Shown piece by piece: positions 1 to 23,856 of a stretch of 24,000 nt of DNA. The notes beneath the pieces were generated by a model. The model was not told the DNA's origin, ran no database searches, and saw nothing but the letters and a program-made list of their open reading frames with translations. The position numbers were made by a program, and so were the translations under genes. This DNA comes from Methanococcus voltae (lineage in GTDB: Archaea; AGJL01; Methanococci; Methanococcales; Methanococcaceae), in contig NZ_JAGGMO010000004.1 in assembly GCF_017875395.1 (NCBI RefSeq), positions 42,478 to 66,477 of the forward strand. The letters are read 5' to 3'. How positions within the stretch are numbered: the first letter of the stretch is position 1; every line of letters starts with the position of its first letter.

Positions 1-370
1 GGTAAGCTAAGTTTTGTAATTTATCAAAATAGTATTTAATTTCATTTATATTAACAATGATAACTTTTCCATTCATATTATTTGTTTTTAATTTTAATTC
101 TTTTACATAAGGTGCTATGTTTCTTTCTTCTTTCTTTATATATTCTTTTACGTGCGGTTTAAGATATCTTTGCAATACATTAAGCTCATCGACAAGAGAT
201 TTTACATATTTTAAATTTGAACTGTTTTTTGCGAGACTCTCTAATTCGATTGCATTAACATAGTGTTCAGCAATATATTTTCGTAAATCCAAATCTGCGA
301 TTACTTTACCCTGACCGCCATTTTGATTTTGGATATCCACATTATATTTCTCTGAATTATTATATTTCAT
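1..370 (-). CDS. hypothetical protein; only the N-terminal 123 aa are visible (MKYNNSEKYNVDIQNQNGGQGKV...), and the C-terminus lies beyond the window edge
   Basis: Absent from the ORF track because it runs off the window. My minus-strand translation from the ATG at 370-368 stays open to position 1. The start overlaps the stop of the upstream 360..692 ORF by 11 nt, which is operon-style coupling. Confidence 0.5.
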   Translation of the reverse strand, partial: MKYNNSEKYNVDIQNQNGGQGKVIADLDLRKYIAEHYVNAIELESLAKNSSNLKYVKSLVDELNVLQRYLKPHVKEYIKKEERNIAPYVKELKLKTNNMNGKVIIVNINEIKYYFDKLQNLAY

Positions 371-692
371 AACAACCCTCTGCAACTTTATTAATTGCAA
401 TTTCTATGACTTGATAGTCGAAATAATTAGGATGATTTTGTTTAACATTCTTTATTGTTTCAAAAAATAGTTTTTTCTTATTTTCGGATAATTTATATTT
501 TTTAGCAAGTTCGCCAGCTTTACTTTTAACCGTGTTCATTGAACTACAAGTTCCAGCATTAATAACTGCACTATTTAGTAGTGTCCCACAGCCTGTATCA
601 TAAATAACTGCAAATTTACCCGATGCGTAATAATCTCTTTGTCCATAATCTATAAAAACTTCTTCACATAGTGGACATACTTTTAACTTCAT
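360..692 (-). CDS. hypothetical small protein with an N-terminal CPLC motif (possible zinc ribbon)
   Basis: 110-aa ORF. GGTG Shine-Dalgarno lies 5 nt upstream of the ATG (minus strand reads gaatGGTGtaattATG). It is coupled to the downstream partial ORF. No family recognised. Confidence 0.6.
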   Translation of the reverse strand: MKLKVCPLCEEVFIDYGQRDYYASGKFAVIYDTGCGTLLNSAVINAGTCSSMNTVKSKAGELAKKYKLSENKKKLFFETIKNVKQNHPNYFDYQVIEIAINKVAEGCYEI

Positions 693-976: not shown

Positions 977-3958
977 TTATCTTTTAAATTTTCCATATTT
1001 GGATTCTCTTTTCTCAAAAGCTTGTTCTCCCCCCTCCAAAATTTCAAAAATATGTTCCCTAATACCTCGATTATATAAGATACCTTTCTTACTATTTTGA
1101 TAATTATTATTACAATTATCACAATTACCAAAATTCTTATTATCACATAATTTGTGAGGATTATATGAATATTCCAAAGCACCATTTGTATATTCAAATT
1201 TACATTCTTTATTTTCAGTACTATAACCATCCTGATTTGCAACAATGATATTTTCAGAGTCAGTAGATACGACTAAATTAGGATTGTGCGATACAATTAT
1301 TATTTGTCGATTAATTTTTTTATCTTTGATGTAATTTACTAAATTTTTAGAAACAGTTCTATTATCTAAATTATCTTCGGGTTGGTCAATTAATATAGGA
1401 TTTTCTGAATTATTGAGTTCAAGATATAGTTTTAATAAAACGGTGCCTTTTTTTCCCTCAGACATTTTACTTATTGAATCATTTTCATATTTTATATCAT
1501 AATTAATTGTAAAATAATTATCGAACAAAGCCGATATCTGATTTAAATATGTTTCACCATTTTTTATTATATCTTTTTTATGTCCTTTCTTATAAGAGTC
1601 TAAAATAAACTCAAAAATATTAGAGATATTTGAAATGTGGGTATCTAGATTATATTCATAGTACTTTTTATCATTGAAACATTTGAAAGTAGCATAAAAT
1701 TCTCTATTCGATGATTTGTAGAATATATCGCTAAAATTTTTGTTATCAAAACTTAAGTTCCCAGTAATAGTTAAATTACTTTCTAGATTATTATCTCCAT
1801 ATTCACTATTTATCTTTTTAATACGACTATTATAATTTTCGAAAATTTTAGTATAATGTAGGATAATCTCCTCTTTATTAGCATTTATTCTTTTTTCGAG
1901 GTCTTCGATTATAGTTTCTAAATTGATAATTTTATCAAGTTTAGATTGTTCTTTATCCTTTTTTTCAAATAAATTCTTAATAATAGCTTCTTTTTCTAAT
2001 TTTTTGGCATATTTAGATATTTTTTCTTTTAGTATATCTTGCTGTGAGATATAATTAATTATTTGATTAGTGGTTTCTTCCATATATTCGTATATTTTAC
2101 TTTCATACTCAATACTAATTAATTTTGAGCGTATGCTTATTTCATCTTGTAAATCTTTTATTTTACTGTTTAAATTACTTAAATCGTTTTGATTAGTATT
2201 TTGACTATGCTGTATACCATAACTACCAATCCCTTCCATATATTCATTAGTAGCTTGTTTTATATGCTTTTTAAAAGAACTTAATGTATTCTTTAATTCA
2301 TTTTTACTACCTAAATCCTTATTTAATGAGTCTAATTCATCTTTTAATTTGGTATATTCTTCGAGCTCTGATTCCGATAATTTACAGGTAACTTCTAAAT
2401 CCTTAATTTCATTAGTTAATCTTTCAATCTCGCTAGTAATGGCGGTTTTAGAACCTGCATTATATAAGTCAGCAGTATATTTTAAATATTCTTCTAAATT
2501 ACCATCTAGGTTAATGGATAATGAAGAAATTTTTTTTTGCAAATTTTTTACATTACCTTCCATATCTTCCAAGTATTGTTTAATGTCACTTTTTTCAAAA
2601 ATTATATTTTCCACAAGTTCATTTAATTCTTTAGAATTTTCACTTATGGTTGACAGATGCATTTGAGGAATGTATGTAATATTACGATTTTCTTTATTTT
2701 TATCAGTATATTTATCAATATGTTCGTCGCCCCAAACAACTTCAAAATCCTCTAATTCCTTCTCAAAAAACTCATCATATTTTTTAATTTTTTCCGAATT
2801 ATAGTTTTTTACGTCCTTTGCGCATTTTAAATCGTCACTGATATTACTATTAATTGTCTTTGCAATTAAATAAAGCAATATAGATTTCCCTGACGATTTA
2901 CCCCCTATTATAGAATTTAAATTTTGATTTAAATATATTCTTTCATTAGTAAAATAAGGTTTTCCAGTTTTATCTGCGCGATTTATAAATCTAACATATT
3001 TTATGTAATCATATGGTGTTTTTTGCTCAGGTTTTTCCTCTTGAACTTTTATACGGTCATTATCATAAACGATTTGTTTCAAACCTTCAAATGTGGTATT
3101 TGCTTTTATCCAAGTTTTACAATTTCCAATCTTATCTTTTTGAGTAGAATTTGAGAAATAATGTGCATCGCTACAATCCAATAATAAATCATTTACCTTA
3201 TTATCTTTTAATTTAGTTTTAGCATTATTATAGTTTTCAACAGATTCAGATGCGGTAAATACAAGAGGTACCCTATTAATAATATTTTTCTTCTCGGAAA
3301 TTGATGATTCACTCCACCCTAGTTTATCCCATTCCGTTTTACCGACTGCCATTAAATATTTTCCCTGAAAACGATTATTCATTATTAAATTACTTTCAAT
3401 ATCTTTAAAATCTACATTTAAATTATTAAACCCAATTTTTAAATCGGATTTTTTATCATCTCTGGGGCTAGTTTCTTTTATTTTTTTACCCAATTCTTCC
3501 AAAGATTCTTTCGTTACGCAACCATCCCAAATAACCTCCTCTCGACCAAGTGTTCCTTTTTCTAAATGGTACTTACATTGGATTGCCTTTAAAAACTGAC
3601 TTTTAATTGTTTTTACTTTAAGTTCTTCAGAAAATATAACGTGTAAATTTATACGTTTAAGATTCTCAAACTTTACACCTGCAAAATTACTTATTCTAAA
3701 TTCAACTACAGGTAATAATGTATCGATATTTTCTAATCGACCCTCTTTTTTATAATTTAATAACTTTTCATAGCCATCAAGAAATAAGTAATCATTAATC
3801 CCGAGAACTTTAAACTCAGAGGGTAAGTTTTCCAAATCTGTTACATATTTTTCCCAAACGTCAGCTTTGCCCCCATAATGATTAATTATCGAACAAGGGG
3901 TATGAACATGTAAATCCCATATATTCCATTCTGAACCTCGAGGGTATTTTATATTCAA
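977..3958 (-). CDS. PHP-domain phosphoesterase fused to a coiled-coil SMC/Rad50/ABC-type ATPase (Ppl-like architecture)
   Basis: N-terminal PHP motifs: WDLHVHT (HxH), VVEF, NLHVIF, DCSDAHY. Walker A is IIGGKSSGKS. A heptad-rich E/K/L segment of about 300 aa separates the ATPase halves. Walker B/D-loop is ILIDQPEDNLD and the H-loop is IIVSHNPN. Confidence 0.85.
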   Translation of the reverse strand: MNIKYPRGSEWNIWDLHVHTPCSIINHYGGKADVWEKYVTDLENLPSEFKVLGINDYLFLDGYEKLLNYKKEGRLENIDTLLPVVEFRISNFAGVKFENLKRINLHVIFSEELKVKTIKSQFLKAIQCKYHLEKGTLGREEVIWDGCVTKESLEELGKKIKETSPRDDKKSDLKIGFNNLNVDFKDIESNLIMNNRFQGKYLMAVGKTEWDKLGWSESSISEKKNIINRVPLVFTASESVENYNNAKTKLKDNKVNDLLLDCSDAHYFSNSTQKDKIGNCKTWIKANTTFEGLKQIVYDNDRIKVQEEKPEQKTPYDYIKYVRFINRADKTGKPYFTNERIYLNQNLNSIIGGKSSGKSILLYLIAKTINSNISDDLKCAKDVKNYNSEKIKKYDEFFEKELEDFEVVWGDEHIDKYTDKNKENRNITYIPQMHLSTISENSKELNELVENIIFEKSDIKQYLEDMEGNVKNLQKKISSLSINLDGNLEEYLKYTADLYNAGSKTAITSEIERLTNEIKDLEVTCKLSESELEEYTKLKDELDSLNKDLGSKNELKNTLSSFKKHIKQATNEYMEGIGSYGIQHSQNTNQNDLSNLNSKIKDLQDEISIRSKLISIEYESKIYEYMEETTNQIINYISQQDILKEKISKYAKKLEKEAIIKNLFEKKDKEQSKLDKIINLETIIEDLEKRINANKEEIILHYTKIFENYNSRIKKINSEYGDNNLESNLTITGNLSFDNKNFSDIFYKSSNREFYATFKCFNDKKYYEYNLDTHISNISNIFEFILDSYKKGHKKDIIKNGETYLNQISALFDNYFTINYDIKYENDSISKMSEGKKGTVLLKLYLELNNSENPILIDQPEDNLDNRTVSKNLVNYIKDKKINRQIIIVSHNPNLVVSTDSENIIVANQDGYSTENKECKFEYTNGALEYSYNPHKLCDNKNFGNCDNCNNNYQNSKKGILYNRGIREHIFEILEGGEQAFEKRESKYGKFKR

Positions 3959-4740: not shown

Positions 4741-5673
4741 ATGGCGTGGGCTAAGGCATTGGTAGAACTATGTGTTCTAAATACGGATTTAAAAAATATT
4801 AAAAATAACCAAAATTCAACAATTTCATTCACATTCGAAGAAATTGCAGAGCTATATTTAAAATATTATTGGAATCAAACAATATACTTTGATTTAGTAC
4901 AGGGCTCTAATCTTACAAAATTACCTGTCATTATACAGCACGTTAAAAAATTGATAAGAGAATATAACGCTATTGCAGGAAATAATCCTAAAAAATATGA
5001 AAAAATAGATTTTAAAGCATTAGGTTTAGAAAAAGCTTACAAAAATACTATAAAAAAGATTTCTAACGTACTACCTGAAAATGTAGCTTGGAGATTTAAA
5101 AAATTAAATAAAAATACTTACGAAATTTATGAATTAGACTTAGAAAAAAGAACTGTTAGTTTTAAATTAGAAGATGCAATGATTTTAAACAGGTACTCTG
5201 ATTTAATGTTCCAAATAATAAATTATCGATGGACACAGATGTTAGAAGGTTTTAACTTATCTCCTCGAATATCTTCAAAAGTAAAAGTTTGTGACCAACC
5301 TGAAATTAAAAGAAATAGCTTAAATAAATTTAAAAAGTTTTTAGACTGCGAATTTGAAGATGAATATAGGTATTGTTTTTACAGTACTGAAAAATTATCT
5401 AACGATTTAACTTCTATAGACCACGTTATACCTTGGTCTTTTATGTACTCCGATGATATATGGAATTTAGTTTATTGTAATAGGTGCATAAATTCAAGTA
5501 AATCAAATAAAACGCCTACCGAAGATACTATAGAAAAGTTAGAAGATAGAAATATATTACTCTTAAAAAAATTGGAAAATTCTGTATATTCTACAAGTAA
5601 AGTTACTAAGGAATTAAATTTAGCGATTAAAAAAGATTATGTTAGAAAATTTTGGATAGCTTCGAAGGGATAA
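4741..5673 (+). CDS. HNH endonuclease-domain protein (C-terminal HNH_4/Cas9-type HNH, N-terminal ~200 aa unknown); the true start may be upstream at about 4672
   Basis: C-terminal motif is SIDHVIPWSFMYSDDIWNLVYCNRCINSSKSNKTP (DH...N...N pattern). The frame is open back to 4639. A strong GAGGGG SD sits at 4663-4668, whereas the ATG at 4741 has no SD. Confidence 0.85.
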   Translation: MAWAKALVELCVLNTDLKNIKNNQNSTISFTFEEIAELYLKYYWNQTIYFDLVQGSNLTKLPVIIQHVKKLIREYNAIAGNNPKKYEKIDFKALGLEKAYKNTIKKISNVLPENVAWRFKKLNKNTYEIYELDLEKRTVSFKLEDAMILNRYSDLMFQIINYRWTQMLEGFNLSPRISSKVKVCDQPEIKRNSLNKFKKFLDCEFEDEYRYCFYSTEKLSNDLTSIDHVIPWSFMYSDDIWNLVYCNRCINSSKSNKTPTEDTIEKLEDRNILLLKKLENSVYSTSKVTKELNLAIKKDYVRKFWIASKG

Positions 5674-5674
5674 C

Positions 5675-5998
5675 ATGAAAATTCACTATAATAAACTCGT
5701 AAGGGGTAATATTATTGATATTATAGAAAAAGACAACAAAAAAGCAAGTTTTCACATTGCAAACGATGAAGAATATAAAATAAAACTCTATGAAAAATTA
5801 AACGAAGAAATTGACGAATTTAAAAATAATCCTTGTGAAGAAGAACTTTCAGATATTTTGGAGGTAATTTATACAATATCTAAACTTAATAATTTTGATT
5901 TAGAAACTGTTGAAAAAATAAGAAAATCTAAATTATTAAAAAATGGAGGATTTGAAAAAAAGATAATCCTTGAAGATGTTGATATTGAAGAGATTTGA
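5675..5998 (+). CDS. MazG-like / PRA-PH-like all-alpha nucleoside-triphosphate pyrophosphohydrolase
   Basis: 107 aa. The N-terminal YNKLVRGNIIDII resembles the KLVRDxIP signature of this family. Acidic metal-binding clusters are EEIDEF and EELSDILEV. The ATG lies 1 nt after the HNH gene stop, with a GAAGGGA SD inside that gene. Confidence 0.75.
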   Translation: MKIHYNKLVRGNIIDIIEKDNKKASFHIANDEEYKIKLYEKLNEEIDEFKNNPCEEELSDILEVIYTISKLNNFDLETVEKIRKSKLLKNGGFEKKIILEDVDIEEI

Positions 5999-6000
5999 AT
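5941..6000 (+). repeat. left copy of a ~60-bp direct repeat (the 3' end of the MazG-like gene) bracketing the TA cassette
   Basis: It aligns with 6701-6760 at a constant offset of 760 bp. The core 5950-5992 versus 6710-6752 has 2 mismatches in 43. Confidence 0.85.
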
Positions 6001-6044
6001 TTATAAAAATTTATAAAAAAAGTAAGAAAATAATATTTAATAAA

Positions 6045-6305
6045 TTAATATGCATCGTCATGATGTGCATATTCTAAAATAATAATGGTATTAACATCTT
6101 CTTTAATTTCATATATTAAAACAAAAGAAGAATAAACGTGAATTCGATAATTACCTTTTAATTCATGCCTTAAAGGTTTTCCACAATATGGATTTTCAAT
6201 TAATTTATTAAATGATTTGTTTAAAGCTTCCGCATGCTTTTTATCTTTTCTAGCTATTCTTTTAATTTTATTAGATAATTTTTCATTTGCAATTTTTAAT
6301 TGCAT
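6045..6305 (-). CDS. type II toxin, RelE/ParE superfamily
   Basis: 86 aa with the typical pattern ...NPYCGKPLRHELKGNYRIHVYSSFVLIYEIKEDVNTIIILEYAHHDDAY. It lies immediately downstream of a small antitoxin-like ORF. Confidence 0.8.
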   Translation of the reverse strand: MQLKIANEKLSNKIKRIARKDKKHAEALNKSFNKLIENPYCGKPLRHELKGNYRIHVYSSFVLIYEIKEDVNTIIILEYAHHDDAY

Positions 6306-6328
6306 TTTACCATCTCTTATAATGGTAA

Positions 6329-6580
6329 TTATAAACCGAGTAATTCACGCCTATAAGCTTCACTAGTTATATCCACATTTTCCGAAGGCAAACTTTTCTT
6401 GTTTGCAAGTACTGACTGAATAAATTCTTCTTTGAACGTTTCTTTATTTAATATTTTTTCAGCGTATTGTAAAACGATATAGTTTATAGCTTCACTTTTA
6501 TCCTTGAATTCTTCAGTCGTTTTTACCAAGTTGATTATTTTATTGGTATTTTCATCTAAAGTAATGTTTGCTTTTACCAT
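6329..6580 (-). CDS. antitoxin, probable ribbon-helix-helix type
   Basis: 83 aa. The N-terminal beta-strand-like NITLDENT is followed by helices. It lies 23 nt upstream of the RelE/ParE-like ORF on the same strand. Confidence 0.7.
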   Translation of the reverse strand: MVKANITLDENTNKIINLVKTTEEFKDKSEAINYIVLQYAEKILNKETFKEEFIQSVLANKKSLPSENVDITSEAYRRELLGL

Positions 6581-6700
6581 AATTCTTCACCTTTCACGCT
6601 CATACTAATATATTACTTCATGTTATAATAAGTTATTCCAACTAACTTCGCATAACGTAATATATTATATTCTTATTTTAGCACATATATTTATTCTAAA

Positions 6701-6760
6701 AAAATGGAAATTTAAAAAAAAGATAATCCTTAAAGATGTTGATATTGAAGATGTTTAAGT
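6701..6760 (+). repeat. right copy of the ~60-bp direct repeat, an orphan remnant of the MazG-like gene 3' end
   Basis: It would encode ...NGNLKKKIILKDVDIEDV*, compared with the gene's ...NGGFEKKIILEDVDIEEI*. No ORF is attached upstream. Confidence 0.85.
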
Positions 6761-7359
6761 TATTTATTTATAAAGTCTATGCAATCATAACATTTATTAT
6801 TCGCTTCTGATTTTAATATTACAAGTCTTGGTAAATTTTTAAATTCTTCATCATACTTTTTTAAACATTCATACGTGGATTTTAATGCAATACTATTCCC
6901 TTCAGTATCAAATCTGTCATAATCATTAGCGTCTGTAGTTAAAAATGTTGGATTTACCGGTACCGTATTATGATTTATTGTCCACAATATGAAATTAGAA
7001 AATATTTCAATATCTGCGTCATTATCTGTTAAATCATCTAATAAGCTATAGTATAATCGATTGAATGATTGGTTTGTAAAATCAGAATAATTTACCATTT
7101 TCACAATTTTATTTAAATAATTACTGATTGCCCCATATATGGTAACCTTTTGTTCTTCAGTTATTCTACCTTCATTGACATAGTGTTTTAATATCTTCAT
7201 AGACCTATGAAGTACTTCATTCTTCACTTTTTTACACGTTGTAGCATCATTATATGTGGTCAAATTATTTTCTTTAAGAAATTCCGTTACTAATTTATTT
7301 TGTGGATCTAAATTAATATGTTGTCCTATTACCACACAAGAATCTAAAAATAAATTCAT
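6760..7359 (-). CDS. PIN-like nuclease-domain protein
   Basis: 199 aa. Acidic residues are spaced as in PIN domains: LFLDSCVVIG (D6), VKNEVL, DNDADIEIF, FLTTDANDYD. Its ATG overlaps the upstream gene's stop (ATGA). Confidence 0.65.
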   Translation of the reverse strand: MNLFLDSCVVIGQHINLDPQNKLVTEFLKENNLTTYNDATTCKKVKNEVLHRSMKILKHYVNEGRITEEQKVTIYGAISNYLNKIVKMVNYSDFTNQSFNRLYYSLLDDLTDNDADIEIFSNFILWTINHNTVPVNPTFLTTDANDYDRFDTEGNSIALKSTYECLKKYDEEFKNLPRLVILKSEANNKCYDCIDFINK

Positions 7360-10869: not shown

Positions 10870-11077
10870 TAAAGGTTTTATAACACGAATTATTTCGGAA
10901 TGAGTATGAATTTCTTCATCCAGTATACGATTATAGTCATTTACTATTTTTTCTAATTCTTCGATATTCCCACCCTATGATATAATAATATTAAAAAATC
11001 TTTAATTAACTGTTTATATATTTTATGAAAAAAGTTAGAAAAATAATATTACATATTTGGTGTTTTGTATTATAATA

Positions 11078-11089
11078 TTGTATATACAA
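11078..11089. promoter_or_regulatory. palindrome TTGTATATACAA, copy 1 of 3 (candidate operator)
   Basis: Perfect 12-bp palindrome. The extended shared context ataatattgtatatacaaaa also occurs at copy 2. Confidence 0.4.
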
Positions 11090-11183
11090 AATTATGTATG
11101 AGGTAGTTTGTAATAATGGTATAATTAAATAAATATATATTTATTTAATTCTTATCTATACTATTCAATAGATATGTATAATA

Positions 11184-11195
11184 TTGTATATACAA
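11184..11195. promoter_or_regulatory. palindrome TTGTATATACAA, copy 2 of 3
   Basis: Perfect palindrome. It shares ataatattgtatatacaaaa with copy 1 and tgtatatacaaaaagc with copy 3. Confidence 0.4.
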
Positions 11196-11332
11196 AAAGC
11201 CACTTATTTAAGTTAACTTTTATTTAATATATTAACTTGTTTTAGTTATATGGTTATGTACTTCATAACAATACTACATTTACTATTGATTTAACATATT
11301 AAGTATTACATATTTATTAAATAATAATCTAA

Positions 11333-11348
11333 TTTTGTATATACAAAA
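11333..11348. promoter_or_regulatory. palindrome TTTTGTATATACAAAA, copy 3 of 3 (16-bp perfect)
   Basis: Perfect 16-bp palindrome located 99 nt downstream of the wHTH gene stop. Confidence 0.4.
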
Positions 11349-11446
11349 AGCAATGTAAAAACATTAACACAAAAAGCAAAAAGTATTATATCATAATATT
11401 CAATAATAAAAAAGTAATATCAATAACTTATAAAAAATATTATTAA

Positions 11447-11863
11447 TTATTTTTGAAATTTAACATTACCACCAATATTTCCAGTATTTACAAATCCAGA
11501 ATTATCATTAATTGTATTATTACTTTGTATATTTTTTTTGGCATTGTTTGAATCTTTTATAATTATTTCTATATTTTTATTTCTTTCCAAAGCTTCAGAA
11601 ATTTCATAAATTTTAATAACGGATTTTCCCAAATCCGAAAGTTTAAAATATGACATTGGCATACTCTCTCCTTTGGGTTCTCTGCGCTTAAATACCAATT
11701 TTTTTTTAACTAACGTCGAAAGTATTTTACTTAAATTTCCACTATCTATATCTAATTCGTTTTGTATTTGTCCAGAATATAATTCACCCCGATTATACAA
11801 AATATATAATATTTCCTTAACATATTTTTTAGTTAATGTTTTTAATAACATAGTATACCTCAA
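11447..11863 (-). CDS. winged-helix (ArsR/MarR-like) DNA-binding protein with a conserved C-terminal GFVNTGNIGGNV tail
   Basis: 138 aa. The HTH is ELYSGQIQNELDIDSGNLSKILSTLVKKKLV and the wing is YFKLSDLG. It is a paralogue of 4120..4464 and is divergent from the integrase operon. Confidence 0.75.
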   Translation of the reverse strand: MRYTMLLKTLTKKYVKEILYILYNRGELYSGQIQNELDIDSGNLSKILSTLVKKKLVFKRREPKGESMPMSYFKLSDLGKSVIKIYEISEALERNKNIEIIIKDSNNAKKNIQSNNTINDNSGFVNTGNIGGNVKFQK

Positions 11864-12023
11864 TTAACACTATGTATATTTTTTCAGTTATATTATATAT
11901 TCCATATTTGAACTTTTTTACAGCGTTGTAATTATATGGAAAAATATAAATACTAGGTTAATTAAATTATACATTACTGTACTAAAATACAGATATGTAA
12001 TGTAAAAATAAAAGGTGAAATTT

Positions 12024-12230
12024 GTGAAAGTAGTTCACGAATACGAGGGGGTTGTAAAACCATTAGGAAACTCAGGTCGAGTTCAACCTGCAATACCTGG
12101 AAAATTAATTGGTAAACGGGTTATTGTAAAGGTTTTAGATGAAGAAACAATAAAAGATACGGAAGAAAACCATGAACCTAAAAATAAAAAATATAAAACG
12201 GAGTGTAAAAAAATAGGGGATAAAAAATAA
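12024..12230 (+). CDS. DUF2080-like / AbrB-SpoVT-like small protein ('transposon-encoded protein' family of archaeal mobile elements)
   Basis: The motif VKPLGNSGRVQPAIPGKLIGKRVIVKVL resembles the DUF2080 pattern (v.pfGnSa.v.vPk..iGk.v.v). I prefer the GTG at 12024, which has AAGGTGA 5 nt upstream, over the track's GTG at 12015 that lies inside the SD. Confidence 0.6.
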   Translation: MKVVHEYEGVVKPLGNSGRVQPAIPGKLIGKRVIVKVLDEETIKDTEENHEPKNKKYKTECKKIGDKK

Positions 12231-12256
12231 AAAAATTGTGAAAATTGAGGGGAACT

Positions 12257-12706
12257 ATGGAAGCTGTTGAATACTACATAATGCAAGGAGAAAATGGAGA
12301 AGAATATGATTCACATAGAGCACATTGGGAATCGGTTAATCATGAAAATAAAGAGTTTAACAAATTATTTAAAGAACATAAGGAATCAATAGAACAGTTC
12401 TATAAAACACAGTATGGGAAGAAAGTTTTATTGAAAAAAGTTAAAAAAGAGGAGTATAACGCTTTTAGCTTTAGAAAAGATAAGTTTGTTATCGATAATG
12501 CGATTGAAGATATAAAAACTTTAATCGGGCGAGTAAATGACTCAGTTTTATTTGTAGATGTTTTTACAGATGAAGCTAAAGTCTATATGTCTTGTCCAGA
12601 GGTTCAATTCTGTCAAACGATTCCTTTTGAAACCTTAAAAGGTTTCCACTTTTGTTGTAAACGATTAAATGAAGAGTTTGATGCTGAAATAATGTTTAAA
12701 GATTAG
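12257..12706 (+). CDS. hypothetical protein (149 aa)
   Basis: ORF with GAGGGG SD (12247-12252) 4 nt before the ATG at 12257. The track's TTG start at 12245 overlaps the SD. Confidence 0.65.
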   Translation: MEAVEYYIMQGENGEEYDSHRAHWESVNHENKEFNKLFKEHKESIEQFYKTQYGKKVLLKKVKKEEYNAFSFRKDKFVIDNAIEDIKTLIGRVNDSVLFVDVFTDEAKVYMSCPEVQFCQTIPFETLKGFHFCCKRLNEEFDAEIMFKD

Positions 12707-12717
12707 AGGGGGTTTTA

Positions 12718-12969
12718 ATGCGTAAATATTTTTACACAAGAAATAAAATTGATTCAAGAGATGTAAGGTATTTCTTACATAAAATAGAGGAATTAAAAGA
12801 AATAAATCCCGAATATTTAGTTCAAGCAGTTAAATATGAAAAAAAGCACAAAGTTTCTATAACTTTATCGGAAAGAGAAGCTAAAATCGTTGAAAAATAT
12901 GGAAAAGCCACCGACATATTGATTAATTATTTGCAAGAGGCAGAGCTACATGAAGGATACCAATATTAA
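12718..12969 (+). CDS. hypothetical protein (83 aa), possible RHH-like C-terminal half
   Basis: AGGGGG SD lies 5 nt before the ATG. VSITLSEREAKIVEKYGKATDILINYLQE has a strand-helix-helix appearance. It overlaps the int start by 20 nt. Confidence 0.6.
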   Translation: MRKYFYTRNKIDSRDVRYFLHKIEELKEINPEYLVQAVKYEKKHKVSITLSEREAKIVEKYGKATDILINYLQEAELHEGYQY

Positions 12970-13933
12970 TGATTTACTAATGATTAAAGAGAAGCGGAAG
13001 AAAAAGGAAAAAGTTGGAAGAAGCACGCAAATGGAAGACTGGGTGGATAGATACATTGAAGAACGGGAATTCGACGGAATTAAACAAAATACTATTAAAA
13101 ATGATATTACCCGATTGAGAGTTTATTTGAGATTTTGCTTTGAAACACATCACACAAAACCTGAAGACATGACCACTGAAGATTTTGTTAAATTCTTTAA
13201 CTATCTTGAAAAAGAACGTGAAACTTCAAGAAATACACAAAACAGGTATTTTAACTTTTTAAAAGTTTTTCACAGAGTTTTTAAACTTAAAAACTTTAAA
13301 GAGTTTGAAATAGATTCACAGGATAGAAAGAGATTTGGTAAGATTGAAGTAAAACATTACGATGCAATGACTCTTGATATTTTAAATTCGATAATTGAAA
13401 AGATTATTCAGCAAAACTCTAGAACTAAAATAAGGGATATTACAATGTTAAGGTTGCTTTGGGATACGGGTTGTAGACATTCTGAAGTATTAAATTTAAC
13501 CTATGGAGATTGCGACCTTAAAAAAGGTGAATTTCTACTTAGAAATACTAAAGGGAGTAAAGAAAGAAAGGTAGTTTGTAGTTATGAAACTTTAAAGCTG
13601 TTGAATTATTATGTAAAGCATAATCTTTACAATACGCCCAATAGTCCGTTATTTCAGAATGATAAAGGTGAAAGGGTAAATAATACATGGCTTGGAAAAT
13701 CTTTTAGGGAAGCAGTTGAGGAATTAAAGAAAGATGGGGAAATTCCTCAAAATAAAAGAATTGTAATTCATTCTATTCGACACGGTAGAGCAGTTGATAT
13801 GTTGAATAAAGGTGTTGGTATAGACATTGTAAAAGAATATCTTGGTCATAGGTCAATTGAAACTACTTTGTTTTATAGCCATTCTAAAGAGAGAACCGAG
13901 GGCATGCTTAACGATTTAAAAGATTTATTATAA
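12950..13933 (+). CDS. int: tyrosine recombinase / phage-type integrase
   Basis: Catalytic signature: LLWDTGCRHSEV (Arg), IHSIRHGRAV (HxxR), YLGHRSIETTLFYSH (His...Tyr). An N-terminal SAM-like core-binding region is present (RVYLRFCFE...FVKFFNYLEKE). Confidence 0.9.
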   Translation: MKDTNINDLLMIKEKRKKKEKVGRSTQMEDWVDRYIEEREFDGIKQNTIKNDITRLRVYLRFCFETHHTKPEDMTTEDFVKFFNYLEKERETSRNTQNRYFNFLKVFHRVFKLKNFKEFEIDSQDRKRFGKIEVKHYDAMTLDILNSIIEKIIQQNSRTKIRDITMLRLLWDTGCRHSEVLNLTYGDCDLKKGEFLLRNTKGSKERKVVCSYETLKLLNYYVKHNLYNTPNSPLFQNDKGERVNNTWLGKSFREAVEELKKDGEIPQNKRIVIHSIRHGRAVDMLNKGVGIDIVKEYLGHRSIETTLFYSHSKERTEGMLNDLKDLL

Positions 13934-13941
13934 CTAATCAT
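13910..13941 (+). repeat. direct repeat I, formed by the last 24 nt of int plus 8 nt
   Basis: aacgatttaaaagatttattataa-ctaatcat aligns with 13992-14027. Together the two copies bracket a 50-bp insert. Confidence 0.8.
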
Positions 13942-13943
13942 AT

Positions 13944-13986
13944 CCATCAAAGGATTTTTACGAGTGAAACGAGTAAAAAGGGTTTG
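13944..13986 (-). repeat. 43-bp element, inverted copy (reverse complement is CAAACCCTTTTTACTCGTTTCACTCGTAAAAATCCTTTGATGG)
   Basis: 42/43 identity to 15466-15508 in reverse complement. It starts 11 nt after the int stop. Confidence 0.9.
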
Positions 13987-13991
13987 AGCGA

Positions 13992-14027
13992 AACGATTTA
14001 AAAGATTTGTTATGAGGGGATAATCAT
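13992..14027 (+). repeat. direct repeat II, a duplicate of the int 3' end that still encodes NDLKDLL*
   Basis: The sequence aacgatttaaaagatttgttatgaggggataatcat supplies the GAGGGG SD and the ATG of the next small ORF. Confidence 0.8.
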
Positions 14028-14187
14028 GAATCCATATGTTGTTTTAAAAATAATTAAAAAGGTAGCATCTTATTATGAAGAAGTTACTGTTCACGATAAT
14101 GGGGATGAATTAATAATCTGTAAAAAGAGTAACGGGGGTGAAGAGTTTGGCAACTCAGGAAGAAATATTGCAGTTAATTATAGATAA
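14026..14187 (+). CDS. small hypothetical ORF (53 aa), possibly the N-terminal part of the following wHTH gene split by a frameshift at a G5 tract
   Basis: Not in the ORF track. It has a strong GAGGGG SD 6 nt upstream of the ATG. It overlaps the next ORF by about 50 nt, and the two frames differ by one nt at GGGGG 14134-14138. Confidence 0.35.
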   Translation: MNPYVVLKIIKKVASYYEEVTVHDNGDELIICKKSNGGEEFGNSGRNIAVNYR

Positions 14188-14476
14188 TGGTGGGGTTATC
14201 AGTACTGCAGAGCTGAACAAGTTAGCGAGTTATAAAAGTAACAGTCAACGTTTACAACAATTGATTAAGAAAAAAATAATATCTAAAGTAAAAGGACCCA
14301 ATAAATCAATGATTTACTTCATAATAGACTTAAAATATATCACTAATGAATCTAAAGAATCTGAACTAATCGTATTAAACCTAAATGAAGATTTAAGCAA
14401 CTATGAAAAACTTTTAAAGTTTTTTGAATTAAAAGCAGATAGCGAAGCTGTAAAGAAAATAAAATCAGTTTTATAA
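14138..14476 (+). CDS. winged-helix DNA-binding protein
   Basis: The HTH is ISTAELNKLASYKSNSQRLQQLIKKKIISKV and the wing is PNKSMIYFI. The start is uncertain: GTG at 14138, or TTG at 14147 with the G5 tract acting as SD. Confidence 0.65.
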   Translation: MKSLATQEEILQLIIDNGGVISTAELNKLASYKSNSQRLQQLIKKKIISKVKGPNKSMIYFIIDLKYITNESKESELIVLNLNEDLSNYEKLLKFFELKADSEAVKKIKSVL

Positions 14477-14486
14477 GGTGGTTCCA

Positions 14487-15173
14487 ATGGTTAATACTTG
14501 GAACGGACAAATAAAACCTGGAAGACCGCCCAAACATAAAAATAGTACTAAAATTTTAGTATACTGTGATTTAAGCGATAGAAAATTCTTAGAAAAATAT
14601 TCATCAATGTACAAAGTTTCAATGTCTGAATTCGTAGTTAGATCTATTAAATCCAAAGTAGCTAATCAATACTTTGATAATGAAAAAAATATTAAAATAA
14701 TAAAATATTTAAAGCGAGCAGTGATATCAATGGTTGATAAACTGAATGATATAAAGCAACGGTTAGAAGAAAAAGAACAACAATTAGGTACTTTAACTGA
14801 AGAGAATGATTTAAATGTTGAAAAAGTAACTGTCTTACAAAGGTATATCAAGCTTCAACGGTATTCCACTACCGAAGAATTCAATAGATTTTTAAAAGAA
14901 AATGAAGAGTTACTTTTTAACCTGGAGGTGTTGTCATTTGAAGATAAAAATCAACTGAATACTAATAAAATTATAGAATCTGAAAAGAAAAATCAACAAA
15001 ACACAATATTTGCAAGGAATATAGTTAAAGGTTCTATTGAAACGTTACAGGAATTAAATGAAAAAGAGGTTACTAATGGATTAACAGAGCAAGATTTAAT
15101 CCTTAAAAGTATCCAATACGAGATGATTGAGAAGTATGGAACTCCTGAAGAGATTAAAAAATATATTTGCTAA
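14487..15173 (+). CDS. ribbon-helix-helix (CopG-like) DNA-binding protein with a GRPPK motif and a long C-terminal coiled coil
   Basis: GGTGG SD lies 5 nt before the ATG at 14487; the track's GTG at 14478 is inside the SD. The RHH is KILVYCDLSDRKFLEKYSSMYKVSMSEFVVRSIK, followed by a heptad-rich E/K/L region. Confidence 0.7.
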   Translation: MVNTWNGQIKPGRPPKHKNSTKILVYCDLSDRKFLEKYSSMYKVSMSEFVVRSIKSKVANQYFDNEKNIKIIKYLKRAVISMVDKLNDIKQRLEEKEQQLGTLTEENDLNVEKVTVLQRYIKLQRYSTTEEFNRFLKENEELLFNLEVLSFEDKNQLNTNKIIESEKKNQQNTIFARNIVKGSIETLQELNEKEVTNGLTEQDLILKSIQYEMIEKYGTPEEIKKYIC

Positions 15174-15197
15174 TACCTTTTTTTGCTTTTTTTAATT

Positions 15198-15220
15198 ATC
15201 CTTGTTTCAATGGATTATAC
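15198..15220 (+). repeat. degenerate internal fragment of the CRISPR repeat, 360 bp outside the array
   Basis: atccttgtttcaatggattatac matches repeat positions 7-29 (atccttgttttaatggatcatgc) with 3 mismatches in 23. Confidence 0.7.
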
Positions 15221-15250
15221 CAAACCCTTTTATTCACTTCGTTCATAAAA
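15221..15250 (+). repeat. degenerate copy of the 31-bp core of the 43-bp element
   Basis: caaacccttttattcacttcgttcataaaa compares with caaaccctttttactcgtt.cactcgtaaaa at roughly two-thirds identity. It is in tandem with the next copy. Confidence 0.5.
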
Positions 15251-15290
15251 CAAACCCTTTTTACTCGTTACACTCGTAAAAATCCTTTAT
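15251..15290 (+). repeat. 43-bp element, direct copy with a diverged 3' end
   Basis: The first 38 nt match 15466-15503 with 2 mismatches. The 3' end, atcctttatact, equals the repeat fragment at 15198-15221 with a 12-nt internal deletion. Confidence 0.8.
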
Positions 15291-15359
15291 ACTAAAATCA
15301 TAGATTTTAGGTATTTTAAAAACCGTAGGTTTTTAAGATGATGGACTCGAAATGTAATT

Positions 15360-15464
15360 AAAATATCAAATCTCCGATTTGACATGAAGCCGTTCGCCCA
15401 TCGACAATGTAAGTTGTCGAGCTATAAATCTGAAAGATTTATTTAAAGGCAGTTGGGCTTTCAA
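15360..15464 (+). repeat. duplicate (copy A) of the CRISPR trailer-flank, including the first 7 nt of a repeat and carrying a 44-bp hairpin-rich insertion
   Basis: 15360-15393 is identical to 15527-15560, and 15446-15464 is identical to 15568-15586. The extra segment 15401-15444 contains tcgacaa/ttgtcga and ataaatc/gatttat hairpins. Confidence 0.85.
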
Positions 15465-15465
15465 C

Positions 15466-15508
15466 CAAACCCTTTTTACTCGTTTTACTCGTAAAAATCC
15501 TTTGATGG
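15466..15508 (+). repeat. 43-bp element, direct copy (CAAACCCTTTTTACTCGTTTTACTCGTAAAAATCCTTTGATGG)
   Basis: It is the reverse complement of 13944-13986 (42/43). It sits between trailer copies A and B and directly follows the repeat fragment ctttcaa. Confidence 0.9.
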
Positions 15509-15520
15509 GAATTTAATAAG

Positions 15521-15549
15521 AAAATAAAAATATCAAATCTCCGATTTGA
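15521..15549 (-). terminator. hairpin plus T-tract at the leader-distal end of the CRISPR array (candidate pre-crRNA terminator)
   Basis: The minus strand reads TCAAATC-gga-GATTTGA followed by TATTTTTATTTT. The same hairpin is duplicated at 15366-15382. Confidence 0.4.
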
Positions 15550-15586
15550 CATGAAGCCGTCCGTCCTAAGGCAGTTGGGCTTTCAA
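15527..15586 (+). repeat. copy B of the CRISPR trailer-flank, continuous with repeat 1
   Basis: See 15360-15464. It runs directly into the terminal repeat of the array. Confidence 0.85.
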
Positions 15587-16733
15587 TCCTTGTTTTAATG
15601 GATCATGCACTGTGACGGTGAAAAAATGATATATCAACTACATTGCCCACATTGGTTTCAATCCTTGTTTTAATGGATCATGCACTGTGACAGTAACATT
15701 TGAAAATTTTGATAATAGTGAAAGTATGTTTCAATCCTTGTTTTAATGGATCATGCACTGTGACATATTTTATAAAACGGTGTAATAAATGCCAAGTGTA
15801 GTTGTGTTTCAATCCTTGTTTTAATGGATCATGCACTGTGACATAGGAGATAAATATGGTTCAAGTGCTTTAGCTTGTTTCAATCCTTGTTTTAATGGAT
15901 CATGCACTGTGACATTTATATGGGATATTGACGTACCTGACAAATGTAGTTTCAATCCTTGTTTTAATGGATCATGCACTGTGACTAGTCGATAGATTAT
16001 ACACTAAAATGTTTAAATAGGGGGGTAATATGGAGTTTCAATCCTTGTTTTAATGGATCATGCACTGTGACCCTCGACTAGTTTGGTCATTTTTGTGTAG
16101 GGCTTGAAGTTTCAATCCTTGTTTTAATGGATCATGCACTGTGACTTTACGCTCATGGAACTTCAAGCAATTTCCGGAAGTTTCAATCCTTGTTTTAATG
16201 GATCATGCACTGTGACTTTCTTTAAATGTATGCTCCTCTTCTTTGAACATATCAGTTTCAATCCTTGTTTTAATGGATCATGCACTGTGACTTCTTTAAT
16301 GTTTGCAAGACCTACAATTTGTTCAAGTTTCAATCCTTGTTTTAATGGATCATGCACTGTGACAAATAAGTATCTGCCTCATCGGTACAATGTAGTTCTG
16401 GTTTCAATCCTTGTTTTAATGGATCATGCACTGTGACAGCTACTATATCAAATAATAACGCTTTCGATATCAAGTTTCAATCCTTGTTTTAATGGATCAT
16501 GCACTGTGACTGTTAATAATTTATTTAATACAGTATGATCAATTTGTTTCAATCCTTGTTTTAATGGATCATGCACTGTGACTCAATAACTTGCTTAGTC
16601 TTACCTAATCCTTGCTGATCGGAGTTTCAATCCTTGTTTTAATGGATCATGCACTGTGACTAGATGTTAATGCTACCCGTATACTATATAATATAGGTTT
16701 CAATCCTTGTTTTAATGGATCATGCACTGTGAC
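15580..16733 (-). CRISPR. CRISPR array: 16 repeats of 37 bp (GTTTCAATCCTTGTTTTAATGGATCATGCACTGTGAC on the + strand) and 15 spacers of 34-49 bp
   Basis: Repeats start at 15580, 15655, 15728, 15806, 15877, 15949, 16035, 16109, 16180, 16255, 16327, 16401, 16474, 16546, 16624 and 16697. All are identical except the first base of the 15580 copy (C for G). The reverse complement ends in ATTGAAAC, the canonical 8-nt crRNA 5' handle of Cas6-processed type I/III repeats, so I infer minus-strand transcription with the leader right of 16733. Confidence 0.97.
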
Positions 16734-16853
16734 ACCAAACTAAATTATTACTCATCAATAAGCATTTAAAACAGCTTATGGATAAAACAAAGCTTTATTT
16801 AACCGTATCACAAAATTTATTCAATCTGACAATATATAGTTTGTTTTAGGCCC

Positions 16854-16861
16854 TATATAAA
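16854..16861 (-). promoter_or_regulatory. candidate archaeal TATA box (TTTATATA on the minus strand) in the putative CRISPR leader
   Basis: Exact match to the TTTATATA consensus about 120 nt upstream (minus sense) of the leader-proximal repeat. AT-rich context makes chance matches likely. Confidence 0.3.
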
Positions 16862-17236
16862 AGTTATCATTTGTATTTTAAAAATATAATTCGGGGTTAG
16901 TTGAATAAGTAAAAAGTAACTCATTTAATAAACAGAAAGTAATTACTAATTGATAATCAAAGGATATAGAATTAATTGAGCACATGAATAACACCATAGA
17001 TTAAACAAAGCTTATAAAGAACTCCAAATTTTATAACCCTAAAAAAAGGAGCTCAGAATGGGCTTAATAATTTTGGATTTTGAAATGCGTTATTACAAAG
17101 GTCATCTAAAAATCATACTAAGTATTACTATAATGTTATAAAACTGTCTAAAAATACCCTTTTAGTTATAGGACTAAAATGTATTTTTCTTTTATAGATA
17201 TATTGCCCCATATATGATATTAATCTATTTTTTTAT

Positions 17237-17288
17237 ACGTAGGACCACCCTATTTTACGAGGTCCTGCGCCCGAAAACGTAGGACCAC
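17237..17288. repeat. three phased ACG(T)AGG(A/T)CC motifs at exact 20-bp spacing, within a locally GC-rich ORF-free region
   Basis: acgtaggaccac at 17237, acgaggtcct at 17257 and acgtaggaccac at 17277. Further GGACC/GGTCC-type motifs occur at 17299, 17330, 17338 and 17366. cgtaggacc (17238-46) can pair with ggtcctgcg (17261-69). Confidence 0.6.
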
Positions 17289-17618
17289 ATATATCGAAGG
17301 ACTTCAATATATTGAAAATTCCCGAAATAGGACCCTAGTCCTGCAACCTGTCAATCAACTTTACGGGTCCTTTTTGCCATATGCTCTTTATAGCCCCAAC
17401 GGCGGATAGTTTACTTGGTGCCTTTTTGAGATTTTCTTTAAAAACTCTTTAAATTAAAAAATAAGTTCAATAAGCCCGTAGATAGATTTTAAAAAAATAA
17501 GCGTATAACGTACTTAAATAAAGCTATAAAACTATAAAATAACCATATTAAAAGAATAACAAACTTAAATAAAACATATTTTAAAACTAAGCTTAAATAA
17601 AACTTCAATAAAAGAATA

Positions 17619-17703
17619 CGCGGAGACCGCGATTTGAACGCGGGTTGAGCAGAGCTCAACGGGATTAGCAGTCCCGCGCCGTACCAGGCTGGGCCATCTC
17701 CGC
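17619..17703 (-). tRNA. tRNA-Ser (anticodon GCU)
   Basis: Manual fold of the minus strand. Acceptor GCGGAGA/TCTCCGC; 3-bp D stem GCC/GGC; anticodon stem CGGGA/TCCCG with loop CTGCTAA; long variable arm TTGAGC-tct-GCTCAA (class II); T arm CCGCG-TTCAAAT-CGCGG; discriminator G; no encoded CCA. Confidence 0.9.
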
Positions 17704-17841
17704 ACCGTATAATTAATAGTTGACTTCAATTAGTCACAAATATAGGATGGTGATTCTACTATATAAACATTTCGGTTAAATTTATAAATTTAGATTTTTA
17801 GAGATTCTATACGCCATAGGATAAAAATTTAAAATTATTTA

Positions 17842-20443: not shown

Positions 20444-20624
20444 AATACCCCCTTTATTTCCTGTAATTAAATTATATTTATTATCCTATATATAGTTAAA
20501 TTATTAAATATATGGATATATAAAAACTAAAAAAATATAAAAAATAAATATAAAATAAAGATAAAATAAAAGCTAAAAACTAAGATAAAATAAAAAAATA
20601 ATAATAAAAAATAATATGGAAAAA

Positions 20625-23567: not shown

Positions 23568-23856
23568 AATTTCACCATAATGAACATTTGATAAAAATAA
23601 TAGTGGTAATAGTAATAATTATTATAATTATTATGGTATTATAGTATTATATTATTATATTATTATAGTATTATAATTATAGTAATCACAATAATAGAAT
23701 GATATGTCATATATACCATTCAAATAATACGAATTTTCGATTATATCCGATTAATAGTATATAATTCATTAAAATATAAAAATATACCCTTTAAATTTAT
23801 TTCAATGAAAGGAATTATAAAAGAATTATAAAATCATATCTAAATTAAGAATATGA

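Follow-up and report, generated by a model that had tools for sequence, protein, structure and literature searches.

The leader-distal end of an orphan CRISPR array in Methanococcus voltae as a possible junction with a decayed tailed provirus

Introduction

In phages, repeated promoter/stem-loop cassettes or boundary cassettes mediate the shuffling of modules, as in the T4-type promoter/stem-loop (PeSL) cassettes and the boundary sequences of lambdoid phages. Viruses also reportedly recombine with the loci of clustered regularly interspaced short palindromic repeats (CRISPR), and are said to carry mini-arrays and solitary repeat units. Here we analyze a stretch of 24,000 nt from Methanococcus voltae (assembly GCF_017875395.1, contig NZ_JAGGMO010000004.1, positions 42,478 to 66,477 of the forward strand), from here on the window, in which a 43-bp dyad-symmetric element is found both next to an integrase gene and at the leader-distal end of a CRISPR array. 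Two other kinds of described system bear on this locus. The type II integrases of Methanococcales target tRNA-Ser, with 54-nt attachment (att) sites (PMC6972569; PMC8371274), and the core sites of tyrosine recombinases are built as 11-6-11 in dif and as 13-8-13 in lox (PMC8371274). The methanogen viruses isolated to date are few (PMC9796341).

The end of a CRISPR array can pass for a run of decayed repeats when it is really the join of a mobile element. A preliminary description of this locus, made from the sequence alone, took the right end of the element to be a decayed CRISPR repeat, the trailer to be a set of collapsed repeat-spacer units, and the copy at the integrase to be one such unit carried there by inversion. 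The reading that we find somewhat probable is another one, in which the leader-distal end of an orphan array here meets the integrase and regulatory module of a decayed tailed provirus at tRNA-Ser(GCU). The components are of known kinds: trailer decay, tRNA-Ser integrating elements, virus-CRISPR recombination, and modular boundary repeats. As for the 43-bp element, the best-supported reading of the alignments makes it a component of the provirus family and not a decayed CRISPR unit, because the claims of repeat derivation fail against shuffled sequences, and because copies are present away from arrays in two other isolates. One of these is strain PS (GCA_024807035.1), and the other, V3, is represented by a contig of 37,269 bp (IMGVR_UViG_2918192969_000001).

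Results

The array and its trailer

The array has 16 copies of its repeat at a repeat-to-repeat spacing of 71-86 nt, which is the regularity expected of a CRISPR array, and the repeats match the Rfam family CRISPR-DR7 on the minus strand with 49.9 bits (gathering score 37). Because Rfam places the repeats on that strand, the array reads from right to left, with the leader at its right, the trailer at its left, and 15580-15616 as the leader-distal repeat, which is how the preliminary description had labelled it. The first plus-strand base of this terminal repeat is C, not G. There are no cas genes among the open reading frames (ORFs) of the window, where the matches of HNH domains to Cas9 models are weak and far below cut-off, and within the window the array is an orphan. 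No credible protospacer for the spacers is present in any of the loci that we fetched. To the right of the array there are ~880 nt of non-coding DNA and then a tRNA-Ser(GCU) gene (17618-17704, minus strand), and to its left there are two lineage-specific ORFs, a tyrosine recombinase gene (int), and a MarR / DUF2080 / DUF2540 module.

Beyond the terminal repeat there is one further fragment of the CRISPR repeat, which we call R'. It is collinear with the array and on the same strand, as a decayed repeat should be, and it has a local score of 32 against a shuffle mean of 17.4, a score that 0 of 2000 shuffles reach. Thus a 23-nt repeat fragment with three mismatches had been correctly recognized at 15198-15220, and so had the two copies of the element that directly follow it, the first of which (15220-15251) turns out to be truncated and to have another centre type.

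The trailer next to the terminal repeat is duplicated, and the duplicate includes the first 7 nt of the repeat, as had been claimed. By direct sequence comparison, 15360-15393 is identical to 15527-15560 (34/34), and 15446-15464 to 15568-15586 (19/19), the latter block containing the CTTTCAA with which the terminal repeat starts. The hairpin-rich insert reported in the duplicate is also there, with two hairpins, and measures 45 nt (15400-15444) in place of the reported 44 bp. The duplicated unit is larger than had been seen: it is a tandem unit of ~120 bp composed of the element, its flank, ~15 nt, the trailer sequence X, and CTTTCAA. Its two copies, alpha (~15250-15464) and beta (15465-15586), have 92.5% identity over aligned columns, with two additional blocks in alpha, one of 50 nt at 15289-15338 and the 45-nt block just mentioned, each of them holding two hairpins. 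The native trailer copy contains the palindrome CAAATC-GGA-GATTTG and T-runs. The right end of the duplication falls 7 nt into the terminal repeat, and therefore X already adjoined the terminal repeat when the duplication occurred.

The 43-bp dyad element

The element is dyad-symmetric, in the form AAAGGATTTTTAC, an 11-nt centre, and GTAAAAAGGGTTT. Its arms have 7 perfect base pairs, match at 10 of 13 positions when taken as 13 nt, and can be extended to 21-26 nt at 71-73% complementarity; the copy at the integrase (site A) has 26-nt arms that are 73% complementary around the 11-nt spacer. A flank CCAT(C/G) is conserved on one side of the element, and the ends on the AAACCC side are not conserved. 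A 37-nt core, AAACCCTTTTTACTCGTTNNACTCGTAAAAATCCTTT, is present in three exact copies in the window, at 13949-13985 (minus) and at 15252-15288 and 15467-15503 (plus), where the chance expectation is 0.

The variation among copies is concentrated in the centre (GTGAAAC, GTGTAAC, GTAAAAC). We have seen three centre types, in which the arm ends covary: TTTTTAC/GTAAAAA, TTTTAT/ATAAAA, and TTTTTAT/ATAAAAA. Of the copies in the trailer (B1, B2, and B3 in Table 1), B1 matches in inverted orientation the site adjacent to int in PS (29 nt, 96.6%) and is recovered by nhmmer with an E-value of 1.9e-5, and the centre of B3 is identical to that of the int-adjacent copy of V3. The element comes in a short form and in a long form with 50 additional nt that make two hairpins, and the long form of B2 is found twice in V3 (86% identity over 79-94 nt, E-value 2e-27).

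Each strand of the element has a T5 run. The copies lie at module boundaries: some immediately follow int, some precede small operons, and some form clusters. The sequence of 15190-15580 folds better than its shuffles on both strands (z = -2.2 and -2.6). A palindrome of the form AAATC-N3-GATTT occurs 4 times in the window, where 0.17 are expected, three of the four being in the element/trailer region, and it is likewise enriched in the element cluster of V3.

An nhmmer search with a profile of the element reports no further copies in the window, in PS, in L054 (a second locus of the window's strain), or in the loci of M. maripaludis and Methanocaldococcus. A scan of metagenomes with a degenerate pattern of the arms gives chance matches only, 0 true copies being left after filtering on the centre, and Rfam at a permissive threshold has no match on the element or the trailer. 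The preliminary description had called for a search of virus and plasmid databases with the core. An IMG/VR search with the core, the CRISPR repeat, trailer X, and three spacers finds one contig, that of M. voltae V3, and there the core only; among GenBank phages and PLSDB plasmids there is no match to 15174-15620. Our literature search found no published description of the element or of the locus.

Comparison of the element with the CRISPR repeat

Whether the element derives from the repeat was evaluated against shuffled sequences. It had been proposed that the element, preceded by the repeat start CTTTCAA, is followed by 'atcctttgatgg', a repeat segment with a deletion, and elsewhere by 'atcctttatact', the same fragment with a 12-nt internal deletion. 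That CTTTCAA (15458-15464) directly precedes an element copy, B3, is correct, and it is a point in favor of the proposal. The rest of it finds no support. After B2 and B3 only the 7-mer AATCCTT matches the repeat, and about 50% of dinucleotide shuffles score equally, so that 'atcctttgatgg' and 'atcctttatact' are no more similar to the repeat than chance would have them. ATCCTTT is the element's own arm, present in every copy across the three strains, and in place of a 12-nt deletion we find the arm of the element, the 50-nt insert that is conserved among long forms, and then the usual flank TGATGGA. Nor is there support for the suggestion that the element is embedded in decayed repeat units: without R', the best repeat score in 15221-15580 is 18 against a shuffle mean of 16.9 (p 0.35), so nothing there beyond R' beats the shuffles.

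The link that had been drawn between the integrase module and the array end is real, the int-side copy and the copies in the trailer being the same element. What is not correct is that an inversion carried one copy to the flank of int. That copy is found at one position in all three strains, and because of this we take it to be ancestral to them.

Comparison with strains PS and V3

PS is colinear with the window over 12246-15190, at 91.6% identity, and then goes straight to the equivalent of window 17159-17671. The segment closes with a 54-nt partial tRNA-Ser, after which a different element follows. PS thus does not have ~15.2-17.16 kb of the window, in which lie the element copies and duplicated sequence of the trailer, the array, and 425 nt of leader-side DNA; it retains the int-adjacent element, with another centre type. 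The left edge of the missing segment falls within R', and the junction, ...TTATCC|ATAAGAC, keeps the ATCC that starts R'. Because of this ATCC, a deletion in PS is favored over an insertion in the window's strain, and an array ancestral to both strains and deleted in PS is the history that the junction would favor, though it does not show it. The two edges of the indel share a microhomology, TTTTAATTAT/TTTTAGTTAT, that does not exceed chance.

The element that follows in PS takes the tRNA-Ser site right after the 54-nt partial copy (L002 12697-12758 and rightwards). It encodes an nSTAND/AAA-type NTPase among others, and its first ORF has an inverted counterpart at window 367-692, with 82% identity.

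The V3 contig begins with the same 54-nt tRNA-Ser core. Three element copies are clustered on it, two in the long form, and there are three stacked 473-bp units, 81-84% identical to one another and each with its own palindrome specificity, every one of which closes with an identical PS-type element. The module from MarR to int is there, with an element 27 nt past int and homologues of the two ORFs, and next come genes for a virion structural protein (phrog_5339, 2e-53) and for a minor tail protein (phrog_538, 3e-46). Because head and tail genes follow it in V3, we assign the integrase module to a tailed provirus at tRNA-Ser.

PS and V3 both carry the element in loci (21 kb and 18 kb, respectively) where Rfam finds no CRISPR array. 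Related strains thus have the same sequence, with the same flank, with no array nearby, which is a further observation against a repeat-derived element. What V3 does have is a solitary CRISPR repeat fragment, GGTTTCAATCCTTGTTaTAATGGAT, with 25 of 26 matches (L055 5044-5069), starting exactly at the repeat edge and lying in the int module. It could have been left as a scar when a spacer crossed over with a protospacer, or be a solitary repeat unit; we found no spacer that matches the locus of the fragment, and no second repeat flanks it. Because this fragment is in the int module of V3, and because the left edge of the PS indel is inside R', it is plausible that the module has recombined with CRISPR repeats.

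The V3 fragment (L055 5013-5069) truncates the duplicated start of a small zinc-ribbon ORF (MEDKTVICKR|WFQSLL*), of which the intact gene copy comes 70 nt later.

The integrase and its attachment site

The integrase (Int) is 98% identical to the PS protein and 77% to that of V3. Across Methanococcales it has homologues at 50-59% identity, and its relatives are confined to that order. In a profile search of genome contigs with the integrase alignment, 3 of 50 loci were from Methanococcales and the remainder were unrelated bacterial recombinases. Int scores 75.9 bits with the NCBIfam integron integrase (cut-off 265) and 138 bits with XerA (cut-off 220), so it is not of the integron type.

The 54 nt at the 3' end of tRNA-Ser are the attachment core of this integrase family. 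Partial copies of 54 nt are present in PS, where the V3 contig begins, and beside int in two loci of relatives (L004 and L186), and in the Methanothermococcus and Methanocaldococcus relatives the 54-nt fragment or the whole tRNA-Ser gene is found ~150-200 nt past int. Both by its integrase family and by the direct repeat of ~54 nt, this is a Methanococcales type II integrase element at tRNA-Ser. The window itself has no partial tRNA-Ser copy. A short-read contig breaks inside the tRNA (see below), which implies that there is a second att copy, outside the window. A candidate that we rejected is the dyad element as the primary att site of the integrase, since the att site of the family is the tRNA-Ser core.

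The sequence 17159-17617 is conserved in PS and has repeated GGACC/GGTCC motifs, and like motifs are present between int and tRNA-Ser in Methanocaldococcus indicus. They are probably arm-type binding sites of the integrase, forming an arm of the attachment site. These motifs are clustered at 17240-17400 (L002 12320-12470; L006 ~6990-7060), for example as acgtaGGACCac, which occurs twice, and GGACCctaGTCC.

Site A is bracketed by a duplication of the 26-nt 3' end of int in the window and in PS, where the copy is perfect, and not in V3. Either copy would end Int with NDLKDLL*. We rejected Cas1-Cas2-type ectopic integration as the origin of this duplication, since the lengths do not suit a 37-nt repeat.

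Both ORFs after site A are kept in all three strains. The PS homologue of the larger one is annotated as DUF1778, a ribbon-helix-helix family, and for one window ORF there is an identical (100%) M. voltae protein at NCBI, under locus tag J2127. Pfam, NCBIfam, PHROGs, and Protein Data Bank (PDB) sequence searches gave nothing useful for the two.

Contig breaks in the window's own strain

Three short-read contigs from the window's strain (SRR35182738, 100% identical) cover 11121-13973, 13957-15248, and 20608-17645. Their breaks fall exactly at 13944-13986, inside B1, and in the tRNA-Ser core. We take these contigs to be k=31 graph contigs (Logan assemblies). If that assumption holds, there is a second genomic context for the 43-mer 13944-13986, for a PS-type stretch of at least 30 nt, and for the tRNA-Ser core. 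The copies in the window differ in their centres, and hence cannot account for the breaks. Thus there are more copies elsewhere in the genome, or recombinant molecules in the culture.

Table 1. Coordinates of the array, the element copies, and the integrase locus in the window.
Feature	Position	Strand	Evidence or remark
Tyrosine recombinase (int), Methanococcales XerC/D-like ("type II") integrase family	12950..13933	+	
Last 26 nt of int	13906..13931	+	Directly repeated at 13988-14013
Site A, 43-bp dyad element	13944..13986	+	11 nt past int stop codon; inverted relative to B1-B3
Two lineage-specific ORFs, 112 aa (14138-14476) and 228/231 aa (14487-15173)	14138..15173	+	
R', solitary decayed repeat fragment	15198..15220	-	Repeat positions 7-29, 20/23 matches
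B1, truncated dyad element	15220..15251	-	"PS-type" centre (TTTTATTCACTTCGTTCATAAAA)
B2, dyad element, long form	15252..15345	-	Core 15252-15288; two-hairpin 50-nt insert 15289-15338; flank TGATGGA 15339-15345
X1, duplicated trailer copy	15360..15464	-	Ends in CTTTCAA (15458-15464); 45-nt two-hairpin insert 15400-15444
B3, dyad element, short form (43 bp)	15466..15508	-	97.7% to 13986-13944
X2, native trailer at terminal repeat	15527..15586	-	Includes first 7 nt of repeat
CRISPR array, 16 repeats of 37 nt and 15 unique spacers	15580..16733	-	Rfam CRISPR-DR7
Terminal (leader-distal) repeat	15580..15616	-	CRISPR-DR7, 42.5 bits
Leader-side sequence, missing from PS along with array	16734..17158	-	Strain comparison
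460-nt GGACC/GGTCC-motif region (putative attachment-site arm), then tRNA-Ser(GCU) 17618-17704	17159..17704	-	

Discussion

Likeness to described systems

What we observe resembles several known systems, and differs from each of them. As in the decay of CRISPR trailer ends, the last repeat has a mutation on its outer side and is followed outward by one more repeat, decayed and truncated, and this oldest end is opposite the leader. On the other hand, between the fragment and the terminal repeat there are ~360 bp of provirus-derived palindromes and duplicated trailer, and the window has no periodic series of decaying repeat-spacer units.

The tRNA-Ser elements with type II integrases (the pT26-2 family and its relatives; PMC6972569, PMC8371274) share with our locus the integrase family, the 54-nt tRNA-Ser core, the order MarR-DUF2080-...-DUF2540-int of the module, and the tandem occupancy of the tRNA in PS; the module of a Methanocaldococcus relative includes an MCM gene. 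Unlike in those elements, the neighbors of the V3 module are the head and tail genes of a tailed virus and not the core genes of pT26-2 (which were not searched for), and the int of the window is parted from its attachment site by a dyad site, two ORFs, and a CRISPR array.

The element is also like the boundary cassettes of phages in being a short, hairpin-forming sequence present in several copies at the borders of viral modules, where related genomes differ. Here it belongs to an archaeal virus, it has no sequence relationship to those cassettes, and a promoter or terminator role is putative. The repeat fragments in viral modules, at 15198-15220 in the window and at L055 5044-5069 in V3, recall what is said of virus-CRISPR recombination. 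The V3 fragment begins exactly at the repeat edge and abuts a truncated copy of the start of a viral gene, which is the arrangement expected after a spacer-protospacer crossover. Unlike the mini-arrays that viruses are said to carry, the array of the window has 16 repeats, and its status as viral cargo is only putative.

The proposed history of the junction

In the reading that we prefer, the left end of the array would be a recombination scar in which palindromes of a viral boundary or regulatory kind are combined with a single old repeat fragment and a single tandem duplication. The pieces that we can demonstrate are R', the truncated PS-type copy abutting a long-form copy, the ~120-bp tandem duplication, and two insertions of hairpin pairs that came later. 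The element would be a protein-binding or hairpin regulatory cassette, a terminator or an operator, because of its palindromic structure, the T5 run in each strand, its intergenic position, and the AAATC-N3-GATTT palindromes that accompany it. Being present in multiple copies, it may also be a substrate of recombination, whether homologous, illegitimate, or possibly assisted by Int, and such recombination would have brought the provirus module and the array together, with the array in the position expected of the virion genes. The array would have been present in the common ancestor of the window's strain and PS, and lost from PS by deletion.

Several observations weigh against this account. 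The flank of site A is marginally repeat-like (score 18, p ~0.045, uncorrected), and there is a CRISPR repeat fragment inside the V3 module; given these two, there may be a deeper link between the element and the repeat. The direction of the array indel is read from a single feature, the ATCC at the PS junction, with boundary microhomology that is not significant. V3 was examined over 18 kb, and an array borne by the virus would lie in the other 19 kb. The copy number and contexts of the element are those seen in ~70 kb of M. voltae sequence, and its function is deduced from sequence features.

An orphan array between a provirus integrase module and a tRNA attachment site, carried by one M. 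voltae strain and cleanly missing from another, is one outcome of this analysis. The other is a small family of dyad elements, varying in centre (three types) and in length (short or long), whose positions are points of difference among related Methanococcus proviruses.

Alternative explanations

The strongest of the alternatives, which we nevertheless consider unlikely, is that the dyad element is a second recombination site of the adjacent tyrosine recombinase, of the lox/dif, shufflon, or integron kind. Exchange by Int between copies would stack or shuffle modules, would have joined the module to the array end or duplicated that end, and the segment from A to B would be invertible. The element has indeed two inverted arms around an asymmetric, variable centre, as dif and lox do, and it is always 11-27 nt past the stop codon of int, the classical position of a phage attachment site (attP). 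The three diverged 473-bp units of V3 each end in an identical site, and the same-strain contigs break exactly at the 43-mer, which heterogeneity by inversion would also account for. But the demonstrated attachment site of the family is the 54-nt tRNA-Ser core with an arm (PMC6972569). The 11-nt spacer of the element, between arms that match at 10/13, exceeds the 6-8 nt of known core sites (PMC8371274), and a 15-7-15 reading would require mismatched arm ends. The A and B copies differ in what would be the overlap region, and Int is far below the curated cut-offs for integron integrases and for invertases. The segment from A through the ORFs has the same orientation in 3/3 strains, and no inversion or other recombination product was observed. 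If it is true that these elements are recombination sites, they would provide a handle on how archaeal viruses shuffle their modules and exchange DNA with CRISPR loci.

In a broader version, to which we give still less credit, this provirus family would use the dyad element as a further recombination site, whether Int acts on it or it is self-mobile, for the swapping of modules and for recombination with the CRISPR repeats of the host. The array would in that case be either cargo of the virus or an array captured from the host, in the place of the virion genes, and the V3 fragment would be a scar of the same process.

It is also improbable that the element is a non-autonomous insertion resembling a miniature inverted-repeat transposable element (MITE), inserted in intergenic DNA, sometimes at or inside CRISPR repeats, and leaving long target duplications. 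Multiple copies, short and long forms, and imperfectly inverted ends are what such an insertion would show. The 26-nt duplication around site A (in the window's strain and PS, not in V3) and the duplicated trailer bracketing B3 would be its target duplications, and the contig breaks imply more genomic copies. These duplications, however, are unequal, 26 and ~67 nt, with no fixed length, and far longer than those made by transposases; there is no transposase partner, the AAACCC-side ends are not conserved, and one tandem duplication wholly explains the arrangement of the X and B copies.

Finally, the preliminary description's model has R', the CTTTCAA ahead of B3, the marginally repeat-like flank of site A, and the V3 repeat fragment on its side, and it is very improbable given the chance-level repeat similarity of the element's ends, the conserved 50-nt insert where a deletion was supposed, the same element and flank in array-free strains and positions, and the ancestral int-flank copy.

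Returning to the provirus junction that we prefer, the remaining observations concern its neighborhood and related loci.

Other observations

The second locus of the window's strain, L054, has a paralogous MarR-DUF2080-DUF2540-int module, with an int 53% identical to that of the window. This int is followed by a 1192-aa ResIII/DEAD helicase, with no dyad element after int. The window's strain therefore has at least 2 elements of this family.

Downstream of the MarR gene there is a non-coding scaffold of ~355 nt (window 11039-11400; L002 7054-7480; L055 2376-4270). The scaffold is conserved, with three short palindromes and one long central palindrome, and the palindromes are specific to the strain or unit: GTATATAC in the window, CCGG-type in PS, and TGCGCA / ACCGGT / TGGCCA in V3. 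In V3 the scaffold is repeated in four tandem units, and three of these lack a MarR gene. The scaffold resembles an origin, or a set of operators that switch specificity.

Far to the left of the array there is a defence-type island with a TrlF-family ATPase, HNH proteins, and a ParE toxin. The AAA-like ATPase of the TrlF family (977-3958, minus strand; NCBIfam 5e-164) is related to the anti-phage protein Ppl. It is accompanied by an HNH_4 protein (4741-5998, plus strand) and a ParE-like toxin (6045-6580, minus strand) with a small ORF upstream. The TrlF and HNH blocks are insertions relative to PS, and we therefore see here a variable island of defence genes, either within the provirus remnant or adjoining it. 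The pair of ParE toxin and small ORF is flanked by the two copies (83% identical) of a 65-nt direct repeat (5937-6001 / 6697-6761).

At the other side of the window there are very A-rich low-complexity repeats upstream of a leucyl-tRNA synthetase gene (20521-20616), and near 23.6 kb (23627-23674) there is an 8-nt tandem repeat that is ATTATTAT-like.

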